From: Thermoplasmata archaeon
Lineage (GTDB): Archaea > Thermoplasmatota > Thermoplasmata > RBG-16-68-12 > JAFNFQ01
Length of the DNA: 64,000 nt
Reading direction: 5' to 3'
Assembly (NCBI GenBank): GCA_041489255.1
Contig: JBGPQV010000011.1
Coordinates: forward strand, 3,528-67,527
Made by a program: the position numbers and the translations under genes. The notes below the pieces were generated by a model. The model saw only the letters and a program-made list of their open reading frames with translations. It was not told where the DNA came from and did no database searches. Positions 29,487-48,164 of the stretch are shown here, in pieces (the first letter of the stretch is position 1; each line of letters begins with the position of its first letter).

Positions 29487-29597
29487 GGCGGTTCCCTAGA
29501 CGAGGATGTACGGTATTAGTAGGTATCGCAGGCGGACACACCATGGCATCGCCGACTGGGAAAACGTTCATTAGTGAGGGGACAGCTTCCGGCCTCG

Positions 29598-30578
29598 ATG
29601 ACGAAGACCGCTTTCGTAACCGGCATCACAGGACAGGACGGATCATATCTGGCTGAGCTTCTCCTGAAGAAGGGTTACATCGTCTATGGGATGATCAGGC
29701 GCCTAAGCTCTCCCAACACGCGGAACATCGCGCATATCATGGACCAGGTCGACCTAGTTGACGGTGATATGACGGACCAGTCTTCCCTGATCACAGCACT
29801 GATGGAGTCCCAGCCTGACGAGATATACAATCTGGCGGCTCAGTCTTTCGTGGGCACCTCCTTCAGACAACCCGTACTCACCGCGGATGTGAACGGCCTC
29901 GGCGTGGTCAGGTTGCTCGACGCGGTCAGATCGACCGTTCCCGACGCCAAGGTGTACCAAGCATCGACATCGGAACTCTTCGGTAAGGCGACGGAGATAC
30001 CTCAGAGCGAGACGACACCTTTCCATCCACGCAGCCCATATGGAGTCGCCAAGGTCTTCGCCTACTGGGCCTGCGTGAACTACCGCGAGAGCTACGGGAT
30101 GCATGTCTCCAACGGCATCCTCTTCAACCACGAATCGCCGAGGCGGGGGATGGAGTTCGTCACGAGAAGGATAACCTGCGGAGTGGCGAGAATCCACAAC
30201 GGTCTCTCGAAGCACTTGACCCTGGGAAACCTTAACGCCAAGAGGGACTGGGGCTATGCCCCGGAATACGTGGAGGCCATGTGGAAGATGATGCAGCAGA
30301 AAGGAGCAGACGACTGCGTCATCGCGACCGGAGAGACGTATTCGGTGAAGGAGTTCATGGCGCTGGCTTTCAAGGAAGTCGGCATCAACAACTACAGGAA
30401 GTACGTGAGGATTGACGAGAAGCTGAAGAGGCCCGCAGACGTGCACACCCTTTGCGGCAACCCCGCGAAAGCCAAGAAGGTGCTCGGCTGGAAGGCGAAG
30501 ACGAAGGTGCCTGAACTCGTGAAGATCATGGTAGAGGCTGACCTGGAGAGAGTGAAGGAAGAAAGGCACCACCTCTAA
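29598..30578 (+). CDS. gmd: GDP-mannose 4,6-dehydratase
   Basis: Starts at MTKTAFVTGITGQDGSYLAELLLKKGY and has the catalytic motif YGVAKVFAYW and NHESPRRG, the Gmd hallmarks. Confidence 0.85.
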   Translation: MTKTAFVTGITGQDGSYLAELLLKKGYIVYGMIRRLSSPNTRNIAHIMDQVDLVDGDMTDQSSLITALMESQPDEIYNLAAQSFVGTSFRQPVLTADVNGLGVVRLLDAVRSTVPDAKVYQASTSELFGKATEIPQSETTPFHPRSPYGVAKVFAYWACVNYRESYGMHVSNGILFNHESPRRGMEFVTRRITCGVARIHNGLSKHLTLGNLNAKRDWGYAPEYVEAMWKMMQQKGADDCVIATGETYSVKEFMALAFKEVGINNYRKYVRIDEKLKRPADVHTLCGNPAKAKKVLGWKAKTKVPELVKIMVEADLERVKEERHHL

Positions 30579-31112: not shown

Positions 31113-31919
31113 TTAGTATGTGTCGCCCGCGAGATATCCGCCGTTTCGGCCGACCGTTGGCTTCACAACATTCTCAATGACACCGATGACCAATGCATTC
31201 GCTCTTCGACGTTGGTAATCATAAGGCACATCCCTAACATCCTCCCAGCCAGCTTCCTCCCAACGATTGCCAGTCTGCATCCTCTTCATGAAAAGCAACT
31301 TAGCGAATCTCAAAGCGCCGTCACGTATGTATCCATCTAGAGCGGGATTCAGCCCCAGAGGCATGGTCACGAGGATTCTCCCGCCAGGCGCCAATAGACT
31401 CACGAGGTTCTCGAAACCTCTCAGTACCTTCTCGGGCTCGCGGGGTTTCTCCTCCCAGCCAACATGTTCCATCGTTGATATGCTGACGATGAGGTCGTAC
31501 CTTTTCGGCGTCTGGAAGTCGACCACGTCGCGATTGACGACGCCGTCTGCGATTTCATACTTATCAACAACATCATGAGGAAAGGAGAAGTAATTTGGCA
31601 GAACGTTTCCGATTTCAAGTGTCGTCTTCCCAAGGCTGTCCCTGACCGCCGCCCAAATGACGGGGACTTCGACAGCCCTCTCGTTCTTCCATGTCTTGCC
31701 GTAGATGTGGTAGAAGTAGTGGTATGTTTTTCCGTCGAGACGAAAACTGTCCCCAGATCTGAATAATCTGTGGTAGCGATGGCCTATGTGGCCATCGAGA
31801 CGGAAGGTCACTTCTTTGATGACAGAGCGGATGACATGGAGGACTCCTTTCTCGCGGAGGGATGTTCTCAAACCCGGCAAGAGCCCCTGAAACCTCTCGC
31901 GGCTATGCTTCATGCTCAT
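31113..31919 (-). CDS. Methyltransferase-fold protein (degenerate motif I)
   Basis: Has motif II YDLIVSISTMEHV and motif III LAPGGRILVT. Motif I is degenerate (TLEIGNVLPNY). It lies inside a glycosylation operon. Confidence 0.45.
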   Translation of the reverse strand: MSMKHSRERFQGLLPGLRTSLREKGVLHVIRSVIKEVTFRLDGHIGHRYHRLFRSGDSFRLDGKTYHYFYHIYGKTWKNERAVEVPVIWAAVRDSLGKTTLEIGNVLPNYFSFPHDVVDKYEIADGVVNRDVVDFQTPKRYDLIVSISTMEHVGWEEKPREPEKVLRGFENLVSLLAPGGRILVTMPLGLNPALDGYIRDGALRFAKLLFMKRMQTGNRWEEAGWEDVRDVPYDYQRRRANALVIGVIENVVKPTVGRNGGYLAGDTY

Positions 31920-31976: not shown

Positions 31977-33017
31977 TCATTTGTCGATTGCCCGCTCATA
32001 GGACGCAATGTACTGAGACGCGATCTTGTCCATGTTAGCAGTCTTCTCGACGAACTCATACGCTCGCACGCCCATCTCTCTGGTCGCCTGCGGGTCATGC
32101 ATGCCCTCCTGTATGCAGCTCCATATCTCTTCGGGACTCTGGGCGAGCCATCCGGTGATCCTGTTCTGGATGACATCTGGGATGTTGCCGAGCGGAGGTG
32201 CGATGACGGGTTTCTTGAAGGCTATGGGGAAGTAGATCGAACCCGAGGTCGTGATGTCCCTATAGGGCTGCACCACTACGTTGCACGCCTTGAACCAGTA
32301 CTGCAAATCAGCGTCTGAGATGAAGCCCAAGTGCGATATGAGGTCGGTTCGATGATTCGCCGCTTCACGGATTGCCGCCCCAAGTTCAGGTTCCCTGCAT
32401 TCGCCAAAGATGCAGAATCTGACGCTCCGAGCGGTGTCCATCGATAGAAGCTTCAGGAAGTCCTCCGTCCCCTTATAAGGGTGGGTCGGAGCATAGTGGC
32501 CCACGACGAACTCCTCTTCCCCGATTCCTAGGCGAGTCCTAGCTTCCTTCTCTGAGATTGTGTCCTCGAAGGCCCCGTTGAAATTCATGCAAGGTATGAC
32601 AACATCGTCTGCCTGCCAATTCTCAGGCAACCCCTTGGCGGCGAAAGCCCTCTTCGCGTCTGAAATGGATCTCTGGCTGTGCCAGACAGCGACACTCGTC
32701 CTGTCGAGATAGAGATGTGTGACCGAGAGGTCATCTTTGAACACAGGGTCATGGGGGGTGATGTTGTGCACCGTCCAGACCTTGGGAATCCGTTTTCGGA
32801 AGAACAGCTTGGCCATCGTCAGGGAATCGAAGACGTTCCAGTGGAGATGACAGACATCGTTGTCGCCAAGCGTCTTCACCCAGAACCTGATGTAGTTCCT
32901 CGGCCAGCGCAGGTACGGCATCGGCGCTTCATTCACTTCAACGCCATGGGCCCTGAGTGCAGCGTTCAGCCTCATCACATAGCCATGTCTTGTGCTGGGC
33001 ACGCAGAGCACTCTCAT
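31977..33017 (-). CDS. Glycosyltransferase family 4 (GT-B fold)
   Basis: The C-terminal GT1/GT4 domain pattern is present (...FGECREPELG...ISDADLQYWFKACNVVVQPY...), as is the E-x7-E-like region. Confidence 0.7.
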   Translation of the reverse strand: MRVLCVPSTRHGYVMRLNAALRAHGVEVNEAPMPYLRWPRNYIRFWVKTLGDNDVCHLHWNVFDSLTMAKLFFRKRIPKVWTVHNITPHDPVFKDDLSVTHLYLDRTSVAVWHSQRSISDAKRAFAAKGLPENWQADDVVIPCMNFNGAFEDTISEKEARTRLGIGEEEFVVGHYAPTHPYKGTEDFLKLLSMDTARSVRFCIFGECREPELGAAIREAANHRTDLISHLGFISDADLQYWFKACNVVVQPYRDITTSGSIYFPIAFKKPVIAPPLGNIPDVIQNRITGWLAQSPEEIWSCIQEGMHDPQATREMGVRAYEFVEKTANMDKIASQYIASYERAIDK

Positions 33018-33020
33018 GCA

Positions 33021-33890
33021 CTAGCCTTCTCGGACGAAAAACAGATTCGTGTATCTCTTGTTCTCCTGAGTGCATCTCTCCATGATTCCCGGGATGTCTG
33101 CTGGCCGTATCGTCCTCCTTCTTTCGTCGATTTCATGGAGAACGAAGCCCTGCTTCACGAAGAGGTCAATGTATTCCGCAGGCTCCGTGCCGAACTGCCT
33201 GAGTCCGAACGGCCAAAACTCCGACACGATCTTAAGGCGCCTATTCTTCTTGAGGAGATCGGGCATTCCTTGGACCGCTCCACCTTCGGCCCCTTGAATG
33301 TCCATCTTCATGAAGTCCACGCGCCCCCCGAAGTCTGCAAGGAAATCATCCAATCTAACGGCCTCTATCTCAATCGAAGTTCGACCGTCGTTAGGATCGT
33401 AAATCCTGTGATCTCCCTTGTTATCCTCCGAGAGGAAGAGTCGAATTCGCTCGGTTCTGTTGGCGACCGCCTTTTGCACGAGAATGACGTTCTGATAACC
33501 GTTCATCTCCACGTTATTCTTCAAGAGACCGAAGTTGGTCGGGTCTGGTTCGAAGGCGATGACCTTGCCATCTGGGCCAACCAATCTCGCTGCAATCAGC
33601 GTGTGATATCCTATGTTCGCTCCGATGTCAAAGACAACATCGCCTTTCTTTATCTCCCCGTTGAGGAGGCCCGTTTCGACGGGTTCGTATATTCCTCTAA
33701 TCGACAAAGCCATGCCATCATTCTGGTCGAGGAGCATCTTGTGTCCCTGGACTTCTGCGATTGCAGTCGGGTCCTTGAGACGAGACACTAGGTAGTGATA
33801 CGCAATCTTGACGGGATAAAGGTCCCCGACGCCTGGAGCGAGAAAAAGAGGCTCCATAATTCTAAAGGCTGGCAGTATCAGCTTCCGCAT
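33021..33890 (-). CDS. FkbM-family methyltransferase
   Basis: Has DIGANIGYHTLIAARLVGPDGKVIAFEPDP and a FkbM-like C-terminal region. The start is MRKLILPAF at 33890. Confidence 0.75.
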   Translation of the reverse strand: MRKLILPAFRIMEPLFLAPGVGDLYPVKIAYHYLVSRLKDPTAIAEVQGHKMLLDQNDGMALSIRGIYEPVETGLLNGEIKKGDVVFDIGANIGYHTLIAARLVGPDGKVIAFEPDPTNFGLLKNNVEMNGYQNVILVQKAVANRTERIRLFLSEDNKGDHRIYDPNDGRTSIEIEAVRLDDFLADFGGRVDFMKMDIQGAEGGAVQGMPDLLKKNRRLKIVSEFWPFGLRQFGTEPAEYIDLFVKQGFVLHEIDERRRTIRPADIPGIMERCTQENKRYTNLFFVREG

Positions 33891-34152
33891 TATGGCGGCG
33901 TCACCGGAGTTCGACCTTATAGCGTTTGCCCGAGGAGAGTCCGGTCCGAAGGCATCCTGAGGATGTGTTCCTTCGCGCTGACCATCGCCCACGACAAGCG
34001 CCTCGCCCCAGACTTCGCACTGACCATGACCATCGGATAAGGCATTGTCGATGCAACGGCTTTGAGCAACCACGAAATGGCAGACCCGTCGATTACGCGA
34101 AATATCAAGACATCGAACCGCGTCAACCGTCCGCTAGCTCGCTCTAGCAACG

Positions 34153-34194: not shown

Positions 34195-37100
34195 ATGCAT
34201 GGGATTCGCTGTGCCGCTTTTCCTGTCTGTCTGTTGCTAGTGCTGACTGCTGCCGCTTCATTGATCGACTCGGAAGTCGCGGGCGAGCCCGTTCTCGGTG
34301 TCATTGATTTGCACTATTCGTCGCCCGCACTGGAGATCACCCCGGCACGCGAACCGCTTGAAGGTGACTTCGTCCGTGTCACCGCCCACGTAGAGCTTGA
34401 TGGCACGCAGAACTGGACGAAGCGTGGCGTTGTGCTAGATAAGGGGAATCCGGGGGATCCAGACGACACTCAGGTGTCAGCGCCATTCGTAATGTACACA
34501 GGTGGCGAGTATAAGATGTGGTATGTTGGCGACCCGGGTTCCTCCCCAACTTCATACATTATGTTCGCCAACTCAACCGACGGTGTCACATGGACGAAGC
34601 ACGGCACCGTTCTGAGCCCTTCTGGATTGCAGGAACAGGGCGTACACTACCCCGGCGTGATCTTGGATGGATCGACCTACAAGATGTGGTATGGCGGTTC
34701 AGACGGCACGTATTATAGGATTTTTTATGCAACCTCTCCCGACGGCCTTTCGTGGACGAGACAGGGGTTGGCTCTCGACCTCGGTCCACCCGGAGCCATG
34801 GATGACTCCTCCGTTTTTGCTCCGTTCGTCTTGAGAGAGGGTTCCACATATAAGATGTGGTATACCGGCGGCGACGGCAGCAACAACCGCGTGATGTACG
34901 TCGAGTCAAATGACGGCATCAATTGGGGAACCAGAGAACTGAATCTAGATCTCGGGACGCCTGGCTCGGAAGAAAGCGCACACGTGCAGTTTCCCCATAT
35001 ACTGGTGGAGGGAGGCACGTATCACCTGTGGTATGTTGGACAACTCGCCGCCAGAGACAGGATTTTCTATGCAACATCAGCTGATGGAAAGACGTGGACG
35101 CGGTTGGGGAAGGTCGTTGACCTCGGACCACCCGGTAGCACCGATGATGGACACTTGCTCATGCCGCGCATTCTCCATGAGTCAGGGAAGCCATATCAGA
35201 TGTGGTATGCAGGGAAGGGCACACTCCAGAATATACACCACGCCACGTTCGATTTACCGATCACTCTGCCCGTGTCGGCAAGCGTGGACTTCTATCTAGA
35301 CATGATTGGCCCAGGCACCAACATCGGATCGTCTGTTGTCCAAGTTGGCGCACTTGCACCGTCAAACGCCGACATGGTCTGGCTGGCCACGCCCGCCGGA
35401 GGTCATGTGATCTATGCCGTGATCGACGAAGCGAACTCTGTCGACGAGACCAATGAATCGAATAACGTCGCGTCTCTCGCGGTCAGGGTCGTGGCGAACA
35501 GCCCACCTGTGGCCGATGCGGGGAATGACCAGAGTGTGTTCCGGAACTCGATGGTTGTGCTGGACGGTTCAGCCACTTACGATCCCGAGGGCGACCCGAT
35601 CACTTACTTATGGATCCAGACCGCCGGGCTGCCGATGCCCATGTTCGGAAGCAACACTTCCACCCCATTGGTGGTCACCTACCTCTCTGGGTTCTACACA
35701 TTCCTCCTGACGGCATATGATGATCGTGGCGGGATTTCCACAGATATCACGAATGTGACGGTCACGAACCGGCCCCCCACCGCTGATGCAGGACCTGATA
35801 TTAGTGTCGCCAAGAGGACGCTCGTGATTCTTGACGGATCTGGTTCTTCAGACCCGGATTCCGACTTCCTTTCATACGATTGGGTGCAGACGGGTGGCTC
35901 TCCCGTGACTCTCCATGGCAGCAACACACCGAACCCCACTTTCATGCCTGCGACTGCCGGGCTCCGCACTTTCCGACTAACGGTAGATGACGGAGACCTC
36001 GGGGTCGCCAGTGATTCTGTCCAGGTCAATGTGACCAACCTAGAGCCAATCGCCAGCGCGGGATCGGATATGACCGTCAGGAAGAACACGCCCGTGACCC
36101 TGGACGGGACTGGCTCGAACGATCCTGATGGAGACATTCTCTCATATTTCTGGACCCAGACCGGTGGACCGGGTGTGACCTTGTCCCGCCCAAATTCGGA
36201 GACCGCCACATTTACACCATCTGTCGCCGCCATCTACACATTCAGCCTCTCGGTCAGCGATGGCAATGGCGAGACAGACTCCGATTCCGTCCAAGTCAAT
36301 GCCACTAACAGCGGTCCGGTGGCGAACGCGGGCATGGATTTCACGGCGAGGAAGCGCTCACCCACTATACTTGACGGCACGGGCTCATACGACCCGGATG
36401 GAGACGCCATCACGTTCCTCTGGACTCAGATGGGCGGTCCGCCAGTCATTCCAATGGGGATGGATACGGCCACGCCGACATTCACGCCATTGCGTGCAGG
36501 CCTCTATGAGTTCCGCCTCAATGTCACCGATGCCGACGGAGTGACCGGCTCCGACCAGGTTGGCGTAAGCGTCACGAATTCACTCCCAAGAGCGTATGCA
36601 GGACTGGATTTCACCGCCAAGAAGAAGACCATAGTGACCTTGGATGGAGGCGGGTCTTCCGATCCTGACTTGGAGGCGCTCACCTACGCCTGGTCGCAGA
36701 ATGGCGGCCTGAGTGTGATAATCGTGGACGCGGACAACGCCGTCGCGACATTCACCCCGCTTATGTCTGGCAATTATCTCTTTGAACTCACAGTGGCTGA
36801 CGGCGACGGGGGCATATCCGTGGACAGCGTCCAAGTGACCGTCATCAATGCCGACCCACTGGCGGAAGCAGGACCAGACCTGATTTGCGGGAAAGGCACT
36901 CTCGTGAGTCTCGATGGCACTTCCTCTTTTGACAGTGATGGCGACGTCCTTTCCTTTGTCTGGACTCAGACGAGTGGCCCGACCGTCTCTTTGGCGGGAA
37001 TGGACACCGACTCTCCCAGCTTCACGCCAGCGTCCGTGGGTACATACAAGTTCAGGTTGGCGGTGGATGACGGTGATGGCGGGACGGACACCGACACGGT

Positions 37101-37560
37101 ATTCGTGGTCGTCTACGGGATGGCGCCGACCGCTAGATTGACTGCGAGCGTACCGATGGCGCAGGCAGGCTCATCGATAGGCTTCGACGCCAGCCAATCG
37201 ACTGATTCCGACGGATCCATTGATGTCTTCCGTTTTGAATTCGGCGACGGGGTCAACGAGAGCACGAGCTCGCTTTCGGCTTCTCACACTTACTACGAAC
37301 CAGGCATCTACACCGTGACGCTGACAGTCGTGGATGATGACGGGAACACCAGTACTGCGAAAGTGACTGTGAGAATTCTCGCCGCTGAGCGCAACCTCCT
37401 CGCGGACATATGGTGGCTGATCGCCATCATTGTGATACTGGCGGCGAACGTGGTGTATTTCGCGCTTGAGTGGCGGCGATGGAGAGGGAAAGCCACGAAA
37501 ATCGGACTTGACGAACCAGACGAACTGGAGCCTCCACAGAGCACAGAGAGGAATCGCTGA
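34195..37560 (+). CDS. Giant surface protein 1: signal peptide, about 5 beta-propeller-like repeats, about 9 PKD domains, a TM anchor and a short cytoplasmic tail
   Basis: Has a signal peptide (AAFPVCLLLVLTAAAS). The N-terminal module repeats GxYKMWYxGxDGxxxRIFYATSxDGxxWTxxGxVLDLGPPGSxDD about five times. Then come about 9 PKD-like repeats (PPVADAGNDQSV...LDGSGSSDPDGD.I.Y.W.Q) and a canonical PKD (FEFGDGV...HTYYEPGIYTVTLTVVDDDGN). The C-terminal TM is WWLIAIIVILAANVVYFAL. Confidence 0.7.
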   Translation: MHGIRCAAFPVCLLLVLTAAASLIDSEVAGEPVLGVIDLHYSSPALEITPAREPLEGDFVRVTAHVELDGTQNWTKRGVVLDKGNPGDPDDTQVSAPFVMYTGGEYKMWYVGDPGSSPTSYIMFANSTDGVTWTKHGTVLSPSGLQEQGVHYPGVILDGSTYKMWYGGSDGTYYRIFYATSPDGLSWTRQGLALDLGPPGAMDDSSVFAPFVLREGSTYKMWYTGGDGSNNRVMYVESNDGINWGTRELNLDLGTPGSEESAHVQFPHILVEGGTYHLWYVGQLAARDRIFYATSADGKTWTRLGKVVDLGPPGSTDDGHLLMPRILHESGKPYQMWYAGKGTLQNIHHATFDLPITLPVSASVDFYLDMIGPGTNIGSSVVQVGALAPSNADMVWLATPAGGHVIYAVIDEANSVDETNESNNVASLAVRVVANSPPVADAGNDQSVFRNSMVVLDGSATYDPEGDPITYLWIQTAGLPMPMFGSNTSTPLVVTYLSGFYTFLLTAYDDRGGISTDITNVTVTNRPPTADAGPDISVAKRTLVILDGSGSSDPDSDFLSYDWVQTGGSPVTLHGSNTPNPTFMPATAGLRTFRLTVDDGDLGVASDSVQVNVTNLEPIASAGSDMTVRKNTPVTLDGTGSNDPDGDILSYFWTQTGGPGVTLSRPNSETATFTPSVAAIYTFSLSVSDGNGETDSDSVQVNATNSGPVANAGMDFTARKRSPTILDGTGSYDPDGDAITFLWTQMGGPPVIPMGMDTATPTFTPLRAGLYEFRLNVTDADGVTGSDQVGVSVTNSLPRAYAGLDFTAKKKTIVTLDGGGSSDPDLEALTYAWSQNGGLSVIIVDADNAVATFTPLMSGNYLFELTVADGDGGISVDSVQVTVINADPLAEAGPDLICGKGTLVSLDGTSSFDSDGDVLSFVWTQTSGPTVSLAGMDTDSPSFTPASVGTYKFRLAVDDGDGGTDTDTVFVVVYGMAPTARLTASVPMAQAGSSIGFDASQSTDSDGSIDVFRFEFGDGVNESTSSLSASHTYYEPGIYTVTLTVVDDDGNTSTAKVTVRILAAERNLLADIWWLIAIIVILAANVVYFALEWRRWRGKATKIGLDEPDELEPPQSTERNR

Positions 37561-37611: not shown

Positions 37612-37646
37612 GCCGGCCAGCAATGTTGATTCAGGGAGGTTGGGAT

Positions 37647-40600
37647 ATGATGAAGGAATGCATTGGTGGTTTGATTGCGCTGTTGCTTCTCTCCGTGTCC
37701 TTCTCGCCTGGCTTGCCGAATCTTACCTCGCTGCCGCAGCCAATCGTCAAGGACATAGACCTGCACTATGCACCTCCAACGTTGACGACTGATCCGCCTG
37801 GTAATCCCTACTTCAGGGACTCCGTCACGTTGCGTGCAACGCTTTCACTGGAGGCGAAGCAGACCTGGACGAAATATGGTGTGGTTCTTGACAAGGGTGC
37901 GCCCGGCGATAATGATAGCAGGGAGGTAAGCACGCCTTCGCTGCTGTACGACCAGGGCATCTACAAGATGTGGTATTCAGGCAACGATGGCGGTGAAGGA
38001 TCCTGGATACTCTACGCCACATCGCCAGACGGGATCTCATGGACCAGGCACGGCACCGTACTAGGTCCTGGGGGTGCTGGCGAAGATCGCAAATTGGTGT
38101 ACCAATTCGTCATGAAGGACGGCGCGATGTTCAAGATGTGGTACAGCGGCTTCGATGGCAGCAACTACAGAATATTCCACGCAACATCGCCTGACGGGAT
38201 TGCATGGACGAAGAAAGGGCTGGTTCTGGACCTTGGCCCTGCTGGGTCACAGGAAGACTTCTATGTCTACGATCCTTACATTCTGAAGGAAGGTAGCACT
38301 TACAGGATGTGGTACACGGGAAGAGACGTGAACCACTGCAGGATTTTCTACACCGAATCATCTGATGGTGTGAACTGGGGGCAACGCAGCGTCTCCCTGA
38401 ATCTGGGGAGCCCTGGCTCGGAAGACGACGCGCACGTCCAGAGTCCATCCATCCTCCGTGAAGGCGGCGGGTACCACATGTGGTACGCCGGGCAGCACGT
38501 CGGGGTAGACCGCATTTTCTACGCGGTGTCCATCGACGGCAAGACATGGACCGGAATGGGCAAAGTGCTGGACGTTGGGCCTGCGGGCGGGACGGAGGAC
38601 ATGAATGTGAATTTCCAGGACGTCCTGCACTTAACCAGCAAACCCAGCCAAATGTGGTATGCGGGCAGAGGTGGATTCGGGAACCTGAAGATACACTACG
38701 CAACTCTTGTACCATACCCGCTTCCCACCAATGTCACCGTGGGATTCTACCTCGACACGGTGGTCCCGAGCTCATTGATTGGGCTAGATACTGTCACTCT
38801 AGACTACTACTCGTCCGCGCAGGCGGAAGTGCAATGGAAAGCTGGACCCCGCGGGACGCACACGATATGCGCGGTGATCGATCCGTACAATAGCATCACT
38901 GAGATGAACGAAACGAACAACATGGCCTGCATCAATCGGGTTGTTCTGAACCATCCGCCAATCGCCGAGGCTGACGGCCCTTACTCCGCGTTCGAAGGGG
39001 GGCAGGTCATCCTTGATGGAAGCGGATCATACGACATCGACAACGACACCCTGCTGTATCGATGGGACTTCACGAACGACGGAGTCATGGACACACCCTG
39101 GCGCTCTAATCCGAAGTATCCTCACGTCTACGGGGACGATTTCGTCGGTCAGGTCGCTCTGTACGTGAACGACAGCTTCGATGTCAGCATGGACACAGCG
39201 AACGTGACTATCTCGAACGTTCTGCCCTCGGGCACGGTCACAATCACATCCGCACAGCACGAAGGCAGTCCGATAGCGTTCTCTGCTCACGTGACTGACC
39301 CGGGCAGCGACGACATCTTCTTCACGTGGCACTGGGGATTCGGAGCACCAGACGATCACTCCACCTACTACAACAACGGAGTCAGCCCTGACCCGTACCC
39401 GAGCACGGACGTCAACCCGAGGGACGTCACCGACGTTAAGAGTCACATCTACGGCGATAATGGAGCTTTCACTGTCACCGTCTTTATTCAGGACGACGAC
39501 AGCGGGAGCCAGGGTACGACACTCACCATCACCGCCACTCCTGACAACCTCCCGCCATCGATCTCAGTCTCCGGCGGTATGAACATCAACGAAGGCCAGT
39601 CAGTCTCCCTGACCGCCACCGCCACCGATCCTGGAAGCGACGACCTGAAGTTCGACTGGTCCTGGGGAGAGGGTTCGTCGGACTCAAAGACCTACTACAA
39701 CGACGGTGTCGGACCGGACCCGCCAGACAGCCCTGGCGGCACGTTCCCGTTCACAGCCACGGACACGAGGACCCATCCCTACGGCGACAATGGACTGTAC
39801 ACGCTCACATTGGCGGTGAATGACGACGATGGCGGTTCGACGACATGGTCCGGTCAGGTCGCGGTTGCCAACCTCCCGCCGACGATCATTCCGTTCGGAC
39901 CATTCGCAGTCGACGAGGGCAGTCCATTGGCGGCGAACACGACCGCCAACGACCCGGGGAGCGACGACTTGACTTTTGAGTGGTCTTTCGAGCTCGGTCC
40001 GGTCATGGTGAACATCCACTTTAACGACGGAGTCGGTCCAGACCCGCCACAGAGCCCGGACGGGACATATCCGTTCACGGCTCTCGACGGCGTCGAGCAC
40101 ACTTACGGGGATAACGCTGTCTTCACGATCACGCTGACTGTGACCGACGACGATGGCGGTTCCGCCACCTACACGACCAATATCACCGTCTCCAACCTCC
40201 CGCCATCGATCGCACCGTTCGGCCCCTTTGAACTGAACGAGGCTGATCCGCTCACGGTCGCTGCGAACGCCGTTGATCCGGGCAGCGACGACCTGACGTT
40301 CACCTGGAGCTTTGAGTATGGTCCGACAATCCCGCACATCTTCTACAACGATGGGGTCGGACCGGATCCTCCGAAGAGCCCCGACGGGGTCTTCCCCTTC
40401 AGCATCGACGATTCCGCCTCTCAAACATACGGAGACAACGGGGTCTTCAGAATCGCGCTGACCGCCGAGGACGACGACGGCGGCATCGCCGCGTACGAGA
40501 CCGTGGTCACCGTGCACAACGTCCCGCCGACGATTGTCGAGGCGAATGTGTTCATGCTCGCAGACATCTCGATAAGAGTGGCGGGGGAGAAGTGGCATGA

Positions 40601-41186
40601 CGTCATCCTCAAGCTCTACGAGGACGGACGGGAGGTCGGCTGGGCGCAGGTCATCAGGTACCCCGGCAGCCCGAACGGCCAGATGGCCACCCTACACGAC
40701 GTCGAGATAACGCTCGACAGGACCTTCTCCGCGGTCGCGTACTACACGCCCGACGACGATCCGATCAACGGGCAGCCCAACGGGGCGAACCCCGCCTGGC
40801 TCATCATCAGCTGGGAGAGCGGCATGGAGACGAAGCTGCACCACACCTTCAACGTCCAGCACCCTGACACATGGGTCTGGACTGTGGACAACCTCTACAT
40901 CTACGCGGTCAACCAGAGGATACACTTCAGGGCGACCGCAACGGATCCCGGGAGCGACGACCTGACGTTCACCTGGGACACCGGTGACGGGAGGACAATG
41001 ACTGGCGTTTACTACAACAACGGGGTCAGCCCGGATCCGTACCCGAGCCCCGAGGTGAAGCCGATCATCGCCACCGACGAGCAGGTCGTGGTCTATGCCA
41101 TCACAGGAACGTACACGATTGCCGTGACGGTCACGGATGATGATGGAGGAATGGCGTCCATCTCATTCACAATCTCAGTGGGCTAG
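37647..41186 (+). CDS. Giant surface protein 2: signal peptide, the same beta-propeller-like module, and about 7 PKD/cadherin-like repeats with no TM
   Basis: The start is MMKECIGGLIALLLLSVSFS (ATG ATG at 37647, 5 nt after GGGAGG). It has the same YKMWY/RIFYATSPDG repeat module as protein 1. Then come about 7 repeats of roughly 100 aa (PGSDDL.F.WS.G...YYNDGVGPDPP.SP.G.FPF...YGDNG.[FY]T[IL]TL.V.DDDGG). Confidence 0.7.
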   Translation: MMKECIGGLIALLLLSVSFSPGLPNLTSLPQPIVKDIDLHYAPPTLTTDPPGNPYFRDSVTLRATLSLEAKQTWTKYGVVLDKGAPGDNDSREVSTPSLLYDQGIYKMWYSGNDGGEGSWILYATSPDGISWTRHGTVLGPGGAGEDRKLVYQFVMKDGAMFKMWYSGFDGSNYRIFHATSPDGIAWTKKGLVLDLGPAGSQEDFYVYDPYILKEGSTYRMWYTGRDVNHCRIFYTESSDGVNWGQRSVSLNLGSPGSEDDAHVQSPSILREGGGYHMWYAGQHVGVDRIFYAVSIDGKTWTGMGKVLDVGPAGGTEDMNVNFQDVLHLTSKPSQMWYAGRGGFGNLKIHYATLVPYPLPTNVTVGFYLDTVVPSSLIGLDTVTLDYYSSAQAEVQWKAGPRGTHTICAVIDPYNSITEMNETNNMACINRVVLNHPPIAEADGPYSAFEGGQVILDGSGSYDIDNDTLLYRWDFTNDGVMDTPWRSNPKYPHVYGDDFVGQVALYVNDSFDVSMDTANVTISNVLPSGTVTITSAQHEGSPIAFSAHVTDPGSDDIFFTWHWGFGAPDDHSTYYNNGVSPDPYPSTDVNPRDVTDVKSHIYGDNGAFTVTVFIQDDDSGSQGTTLTITATPDNLPPSISVSGGMNINEGQSVSLTATATDPGSDDLKFDWSWGEGSSDSKTYYNDGVGPDPPDSPGGTFPFTATDTRTHPYGDNGLYTLTLAVNDDDGGSTTWSGQVAVANLPPTIIPFGPFAVDEGSPLAANTTANDPGSDDLTFEWSFELGPVMVNIHFNDGVGPDPPQSPDGTYPFTALDGVEHTYGDNAVFTITLTVTDDDGGSATYTTNITVSNLPPSIAPFGPFELNEADPLTVAANAVDPGSDDLTFTWSFEYGPTIPHIFYNDGVGPDPPKSPDGVFPFSIDDSASQTYGDNGVFRIALTAEDDDGGIAAYETVVTVHNVPPTIVEANVFMLADISIRVAGEKWHDVILKLYEDGREVGWAQVIRYPGSPNGQMATLHDVEITLDRTFSAVAYYTPDDDPINGQPNGANPAWLIISWESGMETKLHHTFNVQHPDTWVWTVDNLYIYAVNQRIHFRATATDPGSDDLTFTWDTGDGRTMTGVYYNNGVSPDPYPSPEVKPIIATDEQVVVYAITGTYTIAVTVTDDDGGMASISFTISVG

Positions 41187-41310: not shown

Positions 41311-44300
41311 ATGTTCAAGGAAGGTCGGCGTCTGATATCTGTGTCATTCATTCTTGCCACGTTGCTAGTTTCAACTGTTGCTGTCACAGCAATCGAGCCA
41401 GAGCCGATAGTGAGCCTCGCTGACCTGCACTTCGCCGCCCCGGGTCTCGAACTGCTGCCCGCAGGGAGCCCGGTCGAGGGCGACACGGTACGGATCGTGG
41501 GTCACGTCCAAGCGAGCGGAACGCAGGCCTGGACGAAGGCGGGTGTGGTGCTGGACAGAGGTTCTCCTGGCGAACCCGACAGTCACGAGCTCGGCGCCCC
41601 TTCGGTGATCTACGATGGCGGCGAGCATAAGATGTGGTATGCAGGGACCACAGGCAGCATGACCGGGTCGATACTGTATGCTACTTCGCCCGATGGGGCG
41701 TCCTGGACGAAGCACGGAGCTGTGCTCGCCCCAGGTTCTTCTCCTGAAAACGTCAATGTCCACTATCCTTGCGTGATGAAAGATGGCGTGACGTACAAGA
41801 TGTGGTACAGCGGATTCGACGGCTCTCACTACAGGATATTCTACGCGACCTCGGCCGACGGGCTGACCTGGAGCCGTCAGGGACTCGTCCTCAACCTTGG
41901 GCCTCCTGGTTCCTACGACGACAATTTCGCGTACGGACCCTTCGTGCTCAAGGAAGGAAGCGCCTACAGAATGTGGTATTCTGGGAGTGACGGTGCCAAT
42001 GTCCGCCTCCTCTATGCCACATCTCCCGATGGACGGGGCTGGACGAAGCAGGGCGTCAACCTGAACCTCGGTCCTCCAGGCTCACTCGAGAACGTGCACG
42101 TCTCGCCGAGCTACATCCTCGTGGAGGGCGGCGGATACCACATGTGGTACCGGGGAAGCGATGGCACCAACGACAGGATATTCTACGCGACTTCATCTGA
42201 TGGTCTCTCTTGGAGGCGGCGGGGAGTGGTTGTCGATGTCGGGCCGCCCGGCAGCACCGACGCTGTTCACATTCTGCTCCAATCCGTCCTCCACCTGCCA
42301 GGCATGCCCTACCAGATTTGGTACACAGGCCGAGGTCAGTCCACCATGTACGATAGGATTCACTACGCCTACATGACGTCGGTGCCGATGCCCGTGTCCG
42401 CCGAGGTCGAGTTTTACCTGGACGCAATCTCGCCCGGGAACAGCATGGGAGTGACCATAGCTCAGATCGGGATACTGCACGACTCCACGGCTACGCTGAA
42501 CTGGATTGCGGGACCACCCGGCTGGCACACGATATACGCGGTCATAGATCCGCTCGGCGGTATTCCCGAGACGGACGAGGGCAACAACACCGCCAGCGTC
42601 GATGTCTTCGTCAGGGCGCCCTTGCCGGACTATATACCGGCACAGCCTCGGCCCGTGTCGCCAGTGAAGACCGGGCTGACCCTGCCGCTCCAGCTGTCTC
42701 TCCAGGTCGCGAACATCGGCGGCGTAAACGTGACAGCCGACGCCACACTCGCGATCTGCGACGAGTCAGGGACTCCATTCGCCTCCTTCACGATTCCGTC
42801 CTTGGACTCGGGCAAGGTCTCGGCGCGGTTCACCGCCGCGTGGACATCTCCCGCAGTCCCCGGGACTCATCTTGTGTCCGCGGACGTGGACTACTACGAC
42901 AACGTTGCCGAGTGGGACGAGACGAACAATGTGTACACGTGGACGATTGATGTGGTGGCTGGTCCGGTCACCTCGCTGTCCGTTGGAAGTCCAAGCCACG
43001 TCTCTCCCGCCTTGGTGATGTACGTCAAGTCCTCCACCCCCCTCGACCTCTCCGTCCTCGACCAGGGCGGGTCTGGCATCAACCACACATGGTACAGGAC
43101 AGACAATCTCACTTGGATAGACTACTCCGCTCCGTTCTTCCTCTCCGGGGAGGGAGACCACTATGTCGAGTGGTACTCCGAGGATAACGTCGGGAACGTC
43201 GAGAATGTCTCGCGGCGGGTGCTGAGGGTCGACGACACTCCTCCCGCCACGGCCCTCTCAATAGGCGAGCCCAAGTACACGCTCGGCGGGAACTTCGTCA
43301 CGTCCTTCACTCCTCTCGCGCTTCATGCCGACGACGGCGGCGTCATGCCCGTCGGGACCGACTACACGGAGTACAGGGTGGAAGGCGGGAACTGGAACAC
43401 GTACTCGTCGCCGCTCTTCCTGACGACAGAGGGAATTCACACACTGGAGTTCCACTCCTACGATCTGCTCGCCAACCCTGAGCCCGTCCACTCGATCCAG
43501 GTAGTCGTGGACGACACGCCGCCGACGACGATGGTCGGCGTGGGAGAGCCGGAGTACCAGGCGGCTGACCTCTACGTCACCTCGTCGACCGGCATCAACC
43601 TGACATCAACGGACGGCGGCGCCATCCCGGTCGGGCTCGGCAGGACAGAGTACCGGGTGGATGGTGGTGGGTGGTTCATCTACGCTCACGACATCACGCT
43701 CTCCGGAGCGGACGGCCCTCGCACGATCCAATACAGGTCCGTGGACCTGCTCGGGAACATCGAGATCGTCAGGAGCATTCGCGTCGTCCTGGACAATACG
43801 CCTCCGACAACGACAATCTCCCCTGCAGCCGGGCCGTTCGCAGCGGACATGTGGTTCAACCTCACCACCACGGATTCCGGCTGCGGCGTCGCGGCCATGG
43901 AGTACAAGATAGACTCAGAGCAGTGGAGATTCTATGAAGGCAATTTCACGGTGCAAACCGGACTCCATACGATCTGGTTCAAATCCACGGACAACCTTGG
44001 CAACAGGGAGACGCCGAAGAGCCTCGAGGTGGATATTGAGGCTGAACGCCCGCCGGACATCGCAGTGGGCACGAACTACAAGCCCATGGTCGCGACCGTG
44101 TTCACAGTCGCCCTCCTGGTTGCGGGATTCTGGTCATCGAGGGGGAGACCTTGGAAGAACCGAAAGGACAGGGTGGCAATGCTCCAAGCATTCTGTGCCT
44201 ATTCTCTGCCATTCGCGACGGCCGAGACCGTGACCGGGCTGCTGTCTCTGGCGACCGGGGTCCTCTCAATCCCACCCGTGCTCGGACTCGGAACCGCGGT

Positions 44301-44403
44301 GGACGTGAGCATCCTGTCGATTGGATTTGCCGTGGCCATGCTAAACGTGGCTGGTAGGAAGCAGAAGGGGCCTCCCCCGGGGTCGCAGGACAGCATTGGT
44401 TAG
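41311..44403 (+). CDS. Giant surface protein 3: signal peptide, the same beta-propeller-like module, CARDB-like domains, tandem Ig-like repeats, and a C-terminal multi-TM anchor
   Basis: The start is MFKEGRRLISVSFILATLLVSTVAVTA at 41311. It carries the same repeat module (EHKMWYAGTTG...RIFYATSADGLTWS...). CARDB-like segments are present (IPETDEGNNTASVDVFV and DNVAEWDETNNVYTWTIDV). About 6 repeats of roughly 80 aa follow (Y.[TS]S.T...L...D.GG....G...TEYRV[DE]GG.W..Y..P..L..EG.HT.E..S.D.L.N.E.V.S..V.VD.TPP). The C-terminus has 2-3 TM helices. Confidence 0.7.
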   Translation: MFKEGRRLISVSFILATLLVSTVAVTAIEPEPIVSLADLHFAAPGLELLPAGSPVEGDTVRIVGHVQASGTQAWTKAGVVLDRGSPGEPDSHELGAPSVIYDGGEHKMWYAGTTGSMTGSILYATSPDGASWTKHGAVLAPGSSPENVNVHYPCVMKDGVTYKMWYSGFDGSHYRIFYATSADGLTWSRQGLVLNLGPPGSYDDNFAYGPFVLKEGSAYRMWYSGSDGANVRLLYATSPDGRGWTKQGVNLNLGPPGSLENVHVSPSYILVEGGGYHMWYRGSDGTNDRIFYATSSDGLSWRRRGVVVDVGPPGSTDAVHILLQSVLHLPGMPYQIWYTGRGQSTMYDRIHYAYMTSVPMPVSAEVEFYLDAISPGNSMGVTIAQIGILHDSTATLNWIAGPPGWHTIYAVIDPLGGIPETDEGNNTASVDVFVRAPLPDYIPAQPRPVSPVKTGLTLPLQLSLQVANIGGVNVTADATLAICDESGTPFASFTIPSLDSGKVSARFTAAWTSPAVPGTHLVSADVDYYDNVAEWDETNNVYTWTIDVVAGPVTSLSVGSPSHVSPALVMYVKSSTPLDLSVLDQGGSGINHTWYRTDNLTWIDYSAPFFLSGEGDHYVEWYSEDNVGNVENVSRRVLRVDDTPPATALSIGEPKYTLGGNFVTSFTPLALHADDGGVMPVGTDYTEYRVEGGNWNTYSSPLFLTTEGIHTLEFHSYDLLANPEPVHSIQVVVDDTPPTTMVGVGEPEYQAADLYVTSSTGINLTSTDGGAIPVGLGRTEYRVDGGGWFIYAHDITLSGADGPRTIQYRSVDLLGNIEIVRSIRVVLDNTPPTTTISPAAGPFAADMWFNLTTTDSGCGVAAMEYKIDSEQWRFYEGNFTVQTGLHTIWFKSTDNLGNRETPKSLEVDIEAERPPDIAVGTNYKPMVATVFTVALLVAGFWSSRGRPWKNRKDRVAMLQAFCAYSLPFATAETVTGLLSLATGVLSIPPVLGLGTAVDVSILSIGFAVAMLNVAGRKQKGPPPGSQDSIG

Positions 44404-44954: not shown

Positions 44955-45987
44955 TGTACAATCCTGTAATTAGTTTCCTGGAGGCGAAGGGAGTCATGCT
45001 GTCCGCTCCTTTAGTCTTTTCAGGTAGGCTTTCCTATCCTTAGGACGCAGCTTCCTCACGAACGCGTGCGCAGGCGTCTCGGCGTGCTCGAAGTCCAGCG
45101 ACTCGTGGGGCTTCACCTCGTTGTACCATCTCATGATTTCGTCCAGGCTACGGAACTCCTTCTTCCCGTCCGGCCACCTGGCGCGCAGCTTCGACTTGAT
45201 AGTCCCGAAGAGTCTCTCCACCTTCCCGCCGGTCTGAGGATGCTTGACCCTGGAGCGGATGTGCTGCACCTCTATCCCCCGCTCTTCCTCCAGCTCCCTC
45301 AGCTTCGCGTCGAAGTAGCCCTCGGCTTCATACTGAATCTTGGTGAATTGAGATCCGTGGTCTGTCAGGATCTGGCGGGGGAAGCCGTACCTCTCTCCCG
45401 CCGTCAGGAACGTCTGCCAGGCCATCTGTGCAGACGCACTCCTCGTCCTGGCGTAGCCCATGATCAGGCGGGAGGCGTCGTCCAGGATGACGAGCAGCCA
45501 GTCCCCCGGCCTCAGCAGGGTGTAGTCCATCTGCCATAGGGAGTTGGAGAAACGTCTCTCGAACCTGACCCACGACCTCCTCCTCTGCCTGGCGGGGGGG
45601 TCCTTCACGCGACCCGCCTCCTTGAGCACCACATAAAGGCGGTTGTGCGGTATGTGGCGGTTGTACGCCTCCATGATCTTGCGCTCCAGGGCGACTGGGT
45701 GGAGGTGAAACTCCCTCTCGCACTCGAGTATGAAGGCGATCTCCTCATCTGGCAGCTCCCTCCTCGGTCGACCGGCTTCCTTGAGCACCGGGATCTCTCT
45801 GCCGTATCCCGACCTCCTCCACAGCTCCCTCGCCCACTGAGGAGTGATGTTCCACTTCTTGGCGATCGAGTACACAGACTTGACCCCGCCTTCCATTGCG
45901 TCTATGATTCGTGCAACCTGCCCCCGCGTCAGCTTAGGCATGGGGGGTATTGCGGTCTCTCCAAGAAAGTGATTATGGGATTTGACA
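44955..45987 (-). mobile_element. IS481-family-like insertion sequence, 1033 bp, carrying a DDE (rve integrase-core) transposase
   Basis: The termini are 5'-TGT...ACA-3'. The imperfect terminal inverted repeats match at about 22 of 30 positions (TGTACAATCCTGTAATTAG... against the reverse complement of ...GTGATTATGGGATTTGACA). The element is flanked by the 16-bp direct repeat CTTCCCGCAGGATCGC (44939..44954 and 45988..46003), which is a candidate target-site duplication. Confidence 0.7.
44994..45941 (-). CDS. DDE transposase (integrase core domain, IS481-like)
   Basis: The 316-aa protein starts at MPKLTRGQVARII with an N-terminal HTH. The DDE triad lies in WQMDYT, ILTDHGSQF and KVERLFGTIK. The ORF-track N-terminal extension is spurious. 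Confidence 0.75.
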   Translation of the reverse strand: MPKLTRGQVARIIDAMEGGVKSVYSIAKKWNITPQWARELWRRSGYGREIPVLKEAGRPRRELPDEEIAFILECEREFHLHPVALERKIMEAYNRHIPHNRLYVVLKEAGRVKDPPARQRRRSWVRFERRFSNSLWQMDYTLLRPGDWLLVILDDASRLIMGYARTRSASAQMAWQTFLTAGERYGFPRQILTDHGSQFTKIQYEAEGYFDAKLRELEEERGIEVQHIRSRVKHPQTGGKVERLFGTIKSKLRARWPDGKKEFRSLDEIMRWYNEVKPHESLDFEHAETPAHAFVRKLRPKDRKAYLKRLKERTA

Positions 45988-46048
45988 CTTCCCGCAGGAT
46001 CGCCGCGCTCCGATCTGCTTGAGGCGCTATCGCAGTATGACGTTCCTG

Positions 46049-46543
46049 CTAGTCCATGACCCACTTTTCCAGGCCCTCGACGGTCTTCCTGAGGTCAGGC
46101 CGTTCCGCAAGGGACTTGGCGATCCACTTCTCCATGAACTCTATGTCTTTCTGGATTGCGCTGTCCGTCTTTGCGAGTTCCTTCATGATTGACACGCTGG
46201 TGCGCTTCCACTGCACGATTTCCTTCGGCTGCATCCGTTCAACCGAGTACGGGTTGCGCTCGACCGCAACGTCGGTCTGCTCTCTCCAGAGCTTCAGGTA
46301 TCTGTCGTAGATGAACCCCATGAGCAGTATCGCGGCAACAATGATGAAGAACAGATATATCGTTCCGATGAGATTGTTCGTCTGGTTGTCCACTTCTGAA
46401 ACAAGTCCCAATCTGATGAAGAAGGCCCTGAAATAGTTGTAGTAGAAGACTCCGGCGAGAGTCAGCGCCCAGAACACCAGGCTTATCAGGACTTGACTCT
46501 GCTGTATCCGCCATATCTGGACCATCAGGTATTTCTTGACCAA
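46049..46543 (-). CDS. Small two-TM membrane protein (paralog B)
   Basis: The 164-aa protein MVKKYLMVQIWRIQQSQVLISLVFWALTLAGVFYYNYF... has two N-terminal TM helices and a conserved C-terminal soluble region (DVAVERNPYSVER...FMEKWIAKSLA). It is a paralog of 30594..31046. Confidence 0.6.
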   Translation of the reverse strand: MVKKYLMVQIWRIQQSQVLISLVFWALTLAGVFYYNYFRAFFIRLGLVSEVDNQTNNLIGTIYLFFIIVAAILLMGFIYDRYLKLWREQTDVAVERNPYSVERMQPKEIVQWKRTSVSIMKELAKTDSAIQKDIEFMEKWIAKSLAERPDLRKTVEGLEKWVMD

Positions 46544-46645: not shown

Positions 46646-47521
46646 CTAGTGTCTGATCCTCATTTCCTCCAGACAGCTCTCGAAGCTGTTCATTGAGACG
46701 CCAAGCTTGGCCTCGATCTTCGTCGTTGATAAACATAGTTTGCGCGGGAGCAAGGCACCGAGCCCCGTATCCCCAAGGGTTGTTGGTTCCAGCCTTTCTT
46801 CGTCCAAGCCGAAGGCCTCGCAGACTCGCTTCCCCATTTCAAATCTGTTCAGTCGAGAACTGGTCGCGATGTGGAATATCCCTGATTCATCATTCCGCAG
46901 CAGATCGAATACATGTTCCGCGACCTTGGGCGCATACGACGGGGTTGCCCACTGATCAACCGGCAGGTCCACCTCCTGACCGCACCTGATTTTGTGCACG
47001 ATTGATGTGACCTCGTTCTCCCTCGGCCTCAGCCTGTTCCATCCGAAGTCCTCGCACGTCCTGATTGCAAGCGAGTCGGGGAGAGTCTCCATGACGCTGT
47101 TCTCCCCTTCTAGCCTGGTCCTTCCAAGGATATTAACCGGGTTCGCCTTTGAATCCTCTGCGTAAGGACCTGATTCGCAATTGAACACATGGACCGTGGA
47201 GAATAACGCCATCTTCGCGCCAATCGACCTGCAGACCTTCGCGATAACAAGAGGCGCCTCGGAGTTCACCTGCATCGCTCTCATGGGGTTGGATTCGCAC
47301 TCCGCTATCGAGGTCATCGCGGCGGGCAAGATGACGATGTCTGGTCTCCTTTCTGAAATCATGGTCTTCACTGCTTCGAAATCAGTCAAATCCAGTCTCT
47401 CCAGTCCCGCCACTTCCTCCGAGTAATATGTCCCTGTCACCGAATACCGCCTCGCCTCCGCCTCGTTCAGAAGGTGCTGCCCCAGGAGCCCACTCGCCCC
47501 GATGATGAGAACCTCGGTCAT
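46646..47521 (-). CDS. NAD-dependent epimerase/dehydratase family protein (dTDP-4-dehydrorhamnose reductase RmlD-like)
   Basis: Starts at MTEVLIIGASGLLGQHLL (GxxGxxG). It has an RmlD-like length of 292 aa and a YxxxK-containing region. The ORF-track extension to 47635 is spurious. Confidence 0.65.
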   Translation of the reverse strand: MTEVLIIGASGLLGQHLLNEAEARRYSVTGTYYSEEVAGLERLDLTDFEAVKTMISERRPDIVILPAAMTSIAECESNPMRAMQVNSEAPLVIAKVCRSIGAKMALFSTVHVFNCESGPYAEDSKANPVNILGRTRLEGENSVMETLPDSLAIRTCEDFGWNRLRPRENEVTSIVHKIRCGQEVDLPVDQWATPSYAPKVAEHVFDLLRNDESGIFHIATSSRLNRFEMGKRVCEAFGLDEERLEPTTLGDTGLGALLPRKLCLSTTKIEAKLGVSMNSFESCLEEMRIRH

Positions 47522-48164
47522 GCGACGACGGACCGGCGGCGGGAGGTCAAAACTTTTGTCCCGCCAGAATCCGAGATGATTCTCACCGATAACACGATGC
47601 ATCGCACGACGCCGGTTCGGCGGGTCCTCTGCCACTCCTTTTTACTTTCCGTTCTGATGGCGGGAGGCCGTATCCTTCCTTCCCTCCCTTAAAGTACGTC
47701 TGTGCGGCGGCTTTGGCGGTCATTTATGCTCCGAATCTGATCATCTGACGACCGATTTCGACTCTCTCACGACCGTCGCCGGACAGGTGCTAGCCTGCGG
47801 AAGCGAGATTCCTGTTCCGGAGGTCGGAGGCGGCCGTCAGGGCCTTTCTGACAATCTTCCATCGGACTCTTTCCGGCTCTCCGAGACCCGGTTCCGGCTC
47901 GCGGAGAACCGACGCAGACCGCCAGCGACCCGGTTCTGCCGCCGGGGGACGGCGACAGTTGACCGGGACTCACCGCACGCCGTCACCGGCGCGGTTCCGG
48001 CTCTCCGAGAGAGAGATACGGCGTGCGGGAGGTTACTTTCGAGGGCATGAACATCGGCTGTTCGCGGGGGAAGCTCAAGCATAGTGCCCCGCATGCCGCA
48101 ATCGTCGGGGAATCACCCGGCCTCGTTCGACTACTTCGTCACAGATTCCTTCCACGAAACGCCC

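Follow-up and report, generated by a model that had tools for sequence, protein, structure and literature searches.

Three consecutive genes on the forward strand of a Thermoplasmata archaeon contig (JBGPQV010000011.1, positions 3,528 to 67,527, GenBank assembly GCA_041489255.1) encode exported proteins whose N-terminal heads are five-bladed beta-propellers. This 64,000-nucleotide stretch is referred to below as the window, and all coordinates are those of the window. We denote the genes A (34195-37560), B (37623-41186) and C (41311-44403). The head falls within a named superfamily, that of the GH130/GH117/GH43/GH32 propellers, in which it groups with the GH130/DUF377 branch, and the canonical catalytic acids of these enzymes have been lost from it. 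The interpretation that we favor, with a probability of roughly 0.55, is that the head is a non-catalytic, ligand-binding and probably glycan-binding module derived from that branch, and carried on a membrane-anchored stalk of immunoglobulin (Ig)-like domains.

Open reading frame, Pfam and hydrophobicity analyses show a similar layout in the three products, each of which begins with a signal-like hydrophobic segment. Gene A encodes 1121 residues: a signal peptide (hydrophobic segment at residues 3-29), the propeller with CARDB sequence on both sides of it, a stalk of seven K319L-like PKD/PKD_4 domains (35512-37380; PF22352 in seven stretches, E 2e-110, and PF18911 also in seven), a C-terminal transmembrane helix (residues 1066-1094; 37390-37476), and a short charged tail. 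The 1187-residue product of gene B has a signal peptide, the propeller with its flanking CARDB segments, and a PKD array. Neither a C-terminal transmembrane helix nor another hydrophobic anchor was detected in it, and the protein ends in a PKD domain, unlike those of A and C; it may be secreted, or retained at the surface via another protein. Gene C lies in a frame that is open from 41137, and the public gene call starting at 41311 gives 1030 residues, with a signal peptide, the propeller between CARDB segments, more CARDB, four OmpL47-type barrels, and C-terminal hydrophobic segments.

Each of the three proteins contains five consecutive repeats of about 57 residues. When a blade hidden Markov model (HMM) is run against all six reading frames of the window, its only matches are the blades of A, B and C, five in each protein. 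This HMM was seeded from the A, B and C blades themselves and so is not a fully independent test; independent backing comes from Pfam, from 2,072 homologues with the same five-fold consensus recovered in a word-indexed database search, and from structure prediction. The first-pass annotation, made from the sequence alone, had placed five consecutive units in three proteins at 34380-35230, 37800-38700 and 41500-42350; both the units and the motif it gave for them are borne out, and its ranges deviate by no more than a few tens of bases, with blade 5 of A extending slightly past 35230. The whole propellers are 55-58% identical to each other.

In gene A, blades 1 to 4 correspond to residues 81-137 (34435-34605), 137-193 (34603-34773), 194-250 (34774-34944) and 251-307 (34945-35115), and blade 5 to residues 309-352 (35119 to about 35250). 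Blade 5 is truncated to strands A to C, covering HMM positions 1-44 only, and lacks both the S-x-D-G-x-x-W hairpin and the fourth strand. The missing strand comes from the segment preceding blade 1, where weak fragments match HMM positions 46-57; in A this closing strand, WTKRGVVL, is at residues 74-81 (34414-34437; HMM positions 49-57; strand 46-52 of the structural model described below), and it forms strand D of blade 5. The five blades of B are at residues 89-361 (37887-38705) and those of C at 41551-42372.

Blades within one protein are 36-39% identical to each other, compared with 24 +/- 6% for shuffled blades, and same-numbered blades across the paralogues are 45-62% identical. No tandem repeat was detected at the DNA level by Tandem Repeats Finder, which rules out recent amplification; this absence, together with the higher identity of corresponding blades between paralogues than of blades within a protein, indicates that the repeats are old and predate the duplication that gave rise to A, B and C.

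The residues retained from blade to blade are Y-K-M-W-Y-x-G, R-I-x-Y-A-T-S-x-D-G-x-x-W and G-x-W/x-D. The second of these contains the short Asp-box, S/t-x-D/n-x-x-x-W/f/y, a structural hairpin between strands 3 and 4 in the five-bladed propellers of GH32 and GH43 (Quistgaard & Thirup 2009, PMC2716378). The hairpins of A blades 1 to 4 (S-T-D-G-V-T-W, S-P-D-G-L-S-W, S-N-D-G-I-N-W and S-A-D-G-K-T-W) each fall between model strands 3 and 4, and the S, D, G and W positions are conserved at 85-100% across the family. A shifted Asp-box had been proposed here; the kinship with the Asp-box is confirmed, and the element fits the published consensus of the short form. The short Asp-box is usually present in one to three blades of GH32 and GH43 propellers (PMC2716378), whereas A has it in four of five, the maximum given the way in which blade 5 is closed.

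The fold was predicted with AlphaFold2 from the head of A aligned with B, C and 83 database homologues. The model has a mean predicted local distance difference test score (pLDDT) of 85.7, rising to ∼97 over the propeller, and a predicted template modeling score of 0.83. It contains 20 strands, arranged as five blades of four, with the N-terminal strand closing the last blade. Comparison to the Protein Data Bank (PDB) using Foldseek gave the GH130 proteins Teth514_1788 and 1789 as best matches (9GPH and 7FIP; E 1.5e-14, target TM-score 0.77-0.78), followed by BT_0996 (GH137-type), GH117, GH159, GH43 and GH32. All 50 of the matches listed are propellers of the glycoside-hydrolase type, being glycoside hydrolases, phosphorylases or putative glycosidases. 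The head thus has the five-bladed propeller fold of GH130, and the earlier proposal of a GH32/GH43/GH130-like propeller is confirmed by the model, by Foldseek and by profile matches.

Sequence profiles lead to the same family. With a cut-off of 26 bits, Pfam PF04041 (Glyco_hydro_130, formerly DUF377) scores 26.5 on A, 28.8 on B and 33.4 on C, a marginal and partial match covering approximately profile positions 57-200 of 320, or one to about two and a half blades; 52 of 58 relatives match it as well. On A, the GH32N profile scores 28.4 bits (cut-off 22.1), with a match to profile positions 43-175 that leaves out the nucleophile region. The GH130 equivalogs of NCBIfam are matched weakly and far under their cut-offs, and PF22847, which is present in the precomputed annotations of many homologues, has no match in our Pfam search even at E<=10. 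The best PDB relatives are the GH130 structures 7FIP (E 1e-21) and 9FJ8 (E 5e-21) when the family profile is used, and GH117 anhydrogalactosidases (E 2e-8, one blade only) when the query is a single sequence. The Joint Genome Institute (JGI) annotation already names A a 'PKD repeat protein/predicted GH43/DUF377 family glycosyl hydrolase' and C a 'predicted GH43/DUF377 family glycosyl hydrolase'. The statement in the first-pass annotation that the head could not be assigned to a named family is therefore not upheld. It had also called the domain possibly novel and had itself named a match to a characterized family as the finding that would speak against this; 'novel' is accordingly weakened, since the fold, the superfamily and even an automatic annotation are known. 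What does stand is that the symmetric, acid-poor subfamily, used as a modular surface head, is not described in the searchable literature: our searches on DUF377 and on inactive or lectin-like five-bladed glycoside hydrolase propellers found no description of it.

One set of weak matches is of a different kind. Residues 106-122 of A (34510-34560; Y-K-M-W-Y-V-G-D-P-G-S-S-P-T-S-Y) give weak phmmer matches to framework 2 of antibody lambda light chains. We regard this (W-Y-Q-Q-R-P-G-S-S-P-T versus K-M-W-Y-V-G-D-P-G-S-S-P-T) as a chance resemblance, which can pollute PDB searches with short queries.

The archaeal heads share with GH130 the five-bladed propeller and the blade motifs x-Y-x-M/L-x-Y, I-G-Y-A-x-S-x-D-G-x-x-W/F, and W-E/D before strand A. 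They differ in being only 17-19% identical to the GH130 structures, in being exported and joined to Ig-like stalks where GH130 proteins are soluble enzymes, and in having a near-identical motif in all five blades, so that their internal symmetry appears, without having been quantified, to be higher than that of two aligned GH130 sequences. To the GH117 alpha-1,3-(3,6-anhydro)-L-galactosidases (4AK5, 5TA7, 3R4Y, 3P2N) the likeness is in the overall fold and in a strikingly similar stretch of about 50 residues, essentially one blade (I-W-Y-A-T-S-K-D-G-L-T-W ... G-A-Y-D-D-R-S-V-F-T-P-E-V).

Tachylectin-2 is a five-bladed, highly symmetric, non-enzymatic propeller that recognizes extracellular ligands, and its binding of sugars is proven. 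Its resemblance to the archaeal head, like that of other propeller lectins, is a functional analogy only; it is not among the 50 Foldseek matches listed, and tachylectin has been placed in a different propeller supercluster (PMC8023676).

This ancestry raises the alternative that the heads are active GH130/GH43-type glycoside hydrolases or phosphorylases, which would remodel extracellular or surface glycans using catalytic residues at non-canonical positions. It would account for the above-threshold GH130 and GH32N scores, for the JGI names and for the exclusively glycosidase-type structural neighbors, and genes for glycan biosynthesis adjoin the cluster. The Pfam matches, on the other hand, span no more than two and a half blades or so.

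In the GH130/GH117/GH43/GH32 clan, the catalytic carboxylates are situated where the innermost strand of a blade enters, typically as the residue before a conserved Pro. GH32 enzymes have an N-D-P nucleophile together with R-D-P and E-C motifs, and GH43 enzymes have a D-P, with an Asp base, an Asp modulator and a Glu acid. In GH130 the Asp of 'E-D-P' is invariant (Asp142 in BT3780, Asp131 in BF0772 and Asp104 in UhgbMP), and the D142N mutant is inactive (PMC4599007). GH117 depends on Asp90, Glu167, Asp245, His302, Glu303 and Asp320; Asp245 is within 'H-D-P' and Glu167 is just past the Pro of the adjoining blade, and single mutants of these two are inactive (PMC11574756).

We assigned the funnel-entry residues by sequence position rather than by superposition of coordinates. 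Pairwise alignment puts 'L-E-D-P' of GH130 9FJ8 opposite 'V-H-Y-P' of A, and the profile alignment has the same register for 7FIP and 9FJ8, with 'EDP' of both falling on an unconserved 'aaP' of the family profile. The residue at the site of the invariant GH130 Asp (PMC4599007) is Tyr152 in A, within the blade 2 funnel entry His151-Tyr152-Pro153, and it is Tyr also in B and C. We equated Asn39 and Arg54 of 7FIP with Asn74 and Arg89 of BT3780 from their motif and the same 15-residue spacing; in the profile alignment these presumed subsite residues correspond to the blade 1 Pro and to the residue after M-W-Y, which is Val in A, Ser in B and Ala in C. The residue-level comparison with GH130 comprises these two residues and the Asp; the basic phosphate-binding residues of the phosphorylases and the Glu pair of the hydrolases lie in blades 3-5. 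For GH117, the two of the six essential residues that are covered by the alignment, Glu167 and Asp245, are replaced in A by Phe211 (blade 3 funnel entry Ala209-Pro210-Phe211) and Phe266 (blade 4, Phe266-Pro267) (PMC11574756). Here E169 of the GH117 chain was taken as Glu167 and the Asp of H-D-P as Asp245, assuming a +2 numbering offset that is consistent for both.

Because the five-fold pseudo-symmetry permits an alignment that is one blade out of register, we examined all five equivalent positions. The residues before the strand-A Pro in blades 1 to 5 are Ala, Tyr, Ala, Phe and Met in A (the first and last being in Ala96-Pro97 and Met323-Pro324), Thr, Tyr, Asp, Ser and Phe in B, and Ala, Tyr, Gly, Pro/Ser and Leu in C. 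In A and C, the strand-A entries of all five blades thus lack Asp and Glu, and no acid is common to A, B and C at any funnel-entry position. By positional equivalence, the GH32 (NDP, RDP) and GH43 (D-P) carboxylates are absent here. The first-pass annotation had left a hydrolytic function open and had proposed the conservation of the catalytic acids as a check; with neither the GH130 and GH117 acids nor the positional equivalents of those of GH43 and GH32 conserved, that option is disfavored.

The head belongs to a large family. HMMER, run exhaustively against 1.84 billion cluster representatives (clusters at 50% identity), gave 8,871 matches at E<=1e-3, of which 4,344 reach E<=1e-10 and 921 reach E<=1e-30. 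A scan of species-representative genomes with a single protein as query yielded 80 related loci that were kept, and all 80 are from metagenome-assembled genomes (MAGs). These belong to Thermoplasmatota/Methanobacteriota, one Asgard archaeon, several phyla of the Candidate Phyla Radiation (CPR), Chloroflexota, Lentisphaerae, Calditrichia, Bacteroidota and Omnitrophota. The closest relatives are in Methanobacteriota and Thermoplasmatota MAGs, and together with the N-terminal position of the propeller in A, B and C this agrees with the earlier view of it as a head of archaeal surface proteins.

Among these relatives, all five funnel-entry positions are occupied by residues other than Asp and Glu in 63 of 89 propeller units. 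Over 469 blades, entropy is highest (3.4-4.0 bits of a maximum possible 4.3) at positions 12, 13, 15, 16 and 18, in the funnel entry, and at positions 33 and 36-38, in the B-C loop; from standard propeller topology, we take these positions to be the top face. Near-invariant in the same blades are the hydrophobic core, the short Asp-box and the W-D motif. A variable funnel around an invariant core is the reverse of the pattern expected for an enzyme family with a conserved active site.

Several observations weigh against a loss of catalysis. B has an Asp before the Pro in blade 3, and the W-D and D-G loop motifs are conserved in all five blades and could form other sites. GH130 and GH117 themselves use unusual machinery, a substrate-assisted proton relay and a His/Asp dyad (PMC4599007, PMC11574756), so that odd catalytic arrangements are tolerated in the clan. 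Pfam formally places A, B and C in Glyco_hydro_130, and every close structural neighbor is an enzyme. A minority of relatives, at loci L047, L048, L058 and L059 (Bacteroidota) and L053 and L066 (Anaerolineae), have acidic residues at two or three of the positions in the funnel entry, S-D-C / E-T-x / E-G-P / Q-D-P being an example; judged from their sequences, these may be real enzymes, or may link the family to true GH43/GH130 enzymes. The sugar-nucleotide and glycosyltransferase genes that flank the cluster would suit an enzyme or a lectin alike. Set against the Tyr at the invariant GH130 site in all three paralogues, the Pro and Val/Ser/Ala at the presumed Asn74 and Arg89 sites, the two Phe residues at the GH117 sites of A, the absence of a shared funnel-entry acid, and the fact that the funnel positions are the most variable in the family, we regard an active enzyme as improbable.

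We also considered five equivalent inter-blade binding sites built from the W-D/D-G motifs. On the sequence comparison these are not favored, because no catalytic residue reported for GH130 or GH117 lies in the W-D/E motif (PMC4599007, PMC11574756); W-D/E is also present in true GH130 and GH117 enzymes.

Modular use of the propeller is evident throughout the family. Blades occur in units of five, with 64 proteins having five, eight having 10 and three having 15; six further proteins show four, one blade presumably having been missed. Proteins with 15 blades are encoded at loci L006, L018 and L050; L006 has three adjacent genes with 15, 15 and 5 blades, and two or three such genes are found side by side in other archaeal MAGs. 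At locus L003, which is 69% identical, the order of an A-like and then a B-like gene is kept. Relatives range from about 320 residues, as stand-alone propellers, to more than 5,800; the giant protein P0121 has 5844 residues and 31 matched stretches, and P0122 and P0143 also carry many tandem propellers. An N-terminal hydrophobic segment is present in 56 of the 70 relatives with a complete 5' end, and the fusion partners include secretion sorting tails, PKD, DUF11, fn3, Kelch, beta-helix, and M28 and S8 peptidase domains.

This modularity is also what would be expected of a module that binds no sugar and serves only in structure or in protein-protein contacts, such as a lattice or cap domain of the envelope, or a head that recognizes a protein on another cell. 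Conservation limited to structural repeat residues, the stacking of propellers in twos or threes and in much larger numbers in the giant proteins, and the fusions to peptidases and Kelch propellers all fit such a role, and propellers are common scaffolds for protein interaction (PMC9218822). Nonetheless, the ancestry of the head is in a sugar-handling clan, and the funnel entry of A is aromatic (Tyr152, Phe266, His151), as is typical of sugar stacking. The hypervariable top face fits a binding surface, albeit one that does not separate a protein from a glycan as ligand. On this balance we think a role unconnected with sugars unlikely. That the repeats are a compositional or chance artefact, or the reading frames not real genes, can be dismissed given thousands of homologues with the same five-fold consensus, a confident structure prediction, identical proteins called in two independent assemblies (the exact A protein is present in NCBI GCA_041481165.1, whose contig JBGPBK010000010.1 matches the window, and in JGI 3300052989), and the gene order kept in L003.

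We return to the reading that we favor, a non-catalytic binding head, which corresponds to the carbohydrate-binding option of the first-pass annotation. A, B and C are each exported and hold a five-bladed propeller at the far end of an Ig-like stalk, composed of PKD domains in A and B and of CARDB domains and OmpL47-type barrels in C, with A and C presumably kept in the membrane by their C-terminal hydrophobic segments. The propeller has kept its structural repeat residues only, having lost the carboxylates at the funnel mouth, and the variable top face, made up of the funnel entry and B-C loops, would bind the ligand; in A this entry is aromatic and uncharged. The top faces of A, B and C differ, and the three proteins might thus have three different specificities. 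The analysis demonstrates the fold, the kinship, the loss of the canonical acids, the signals for export and anchoring, and the modular deployment of the domain in its family. We infer both that a ligand is bound and that it is a glycan, the most probable ligand because the ancestry of the head is in sugar enzymes.

A broader proposal, which we advance tentatively and which may well not hold, is that the heads represent a large, unrecognized family of pseudo-glycosidase propellers. Such a family would have given up catalysis and retained its near five-fold symmetry, and its propellers, single or arrayed, would now act as modular and hypervariable heads of a lectin-like kind on the surface adhesins and giant proteins of Thermoplasmatota, Asgard archaea, CPR bacteria, Chloroflexota and other lineages. 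The 'glycosyl hydrolase' annotation would then conceal a new family of lectins or carbohydrate-binding modules. That label probably overstates function in any case, which matters wherever carbohydrate-active enzymes are counted in metagenomes of uncultured archaea and CPR bacteria. Should the head prove to be a binding module, it would be a widespread surface recognition domain in organisms for which very little is known of how cells contact each other or their substrates, and the tandem paralogues, whose funnel linings differ, would provide a ready-made panel of specificities. With its high five-fold symmetry, the family is also well suited to studying how propeller enzymes arose from repeated blades, or decay back into repeats. 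None of this overturns current understanding, as the fold and the superfamily are well known.

In A, C and the L003 orthologue, a CARDB Ig-like domain seems to be interrupted by the propeller; the case for B is weaker. In the intact proteins CARDB (PF07705, a profile of about 100 residues) is matched only after the propeller, from profile position 37 or 51 to 100. When the propeller of A is deleted in silico, the match extends to positions 4-100 with 37.8 bits, compared to 46-100 and 30.3 bits for the C-terminal part alone; the corresponding deletion extends the match in C to 11-100 and does not extend that in B. In A, the first two CARDB strands would be contributed by residues 31-72 (34285-34410; model strands 16-20 and 30-37) and the C-terminal five by residues 355-437 (35257-35505; model strands 331-404), and the model does show two plus five strands around the propeller, at a modest pLDDT of 53-78. 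The equivalent segments are at 37737-37862 and 38709-38954 in B, and at 41401-41526 and 42376-42618 in C. Among the sampled loci, the segments before (∼40 residues) and after (∼80 residues) the propeller are common to A, B, C and L003 only.

The genes flanking the cluster include those for a GDP-mannose 4,6-dehydratase (29574-30578, forward strand), a GT4 glycosyltransferase (31977-33017, reverse), an FkbM-type methyltransferase (33021-34073, reverse) and an RmlD-like reductase (46646-47635, reverse), which suggests an island for a cell-surface glycan or glycoprotein. Two other products in the window have no Pfam match, that of 11393-13762 (forward, 789 residues) at E<=1e-5 and that of 31113-31919 (reverse, 268 residues) at E<=1e-4. 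Further surface-type proteins are encoded on the forward strand at 51177-54746, a large one of 1189 residues with PKD, CARDB and CarboxypepD_reg domains, and at 8519-10303, one of 594 residues with a weak BNR_4 match and a HYDIN/VesB-like Ig domain; the blade HMM finds no blade in either. Directly downstream of the A, B and C cluster, at 44994-46064 on the reverse strand, is an rve-type integrase, the transposase of an insertion sequence element.

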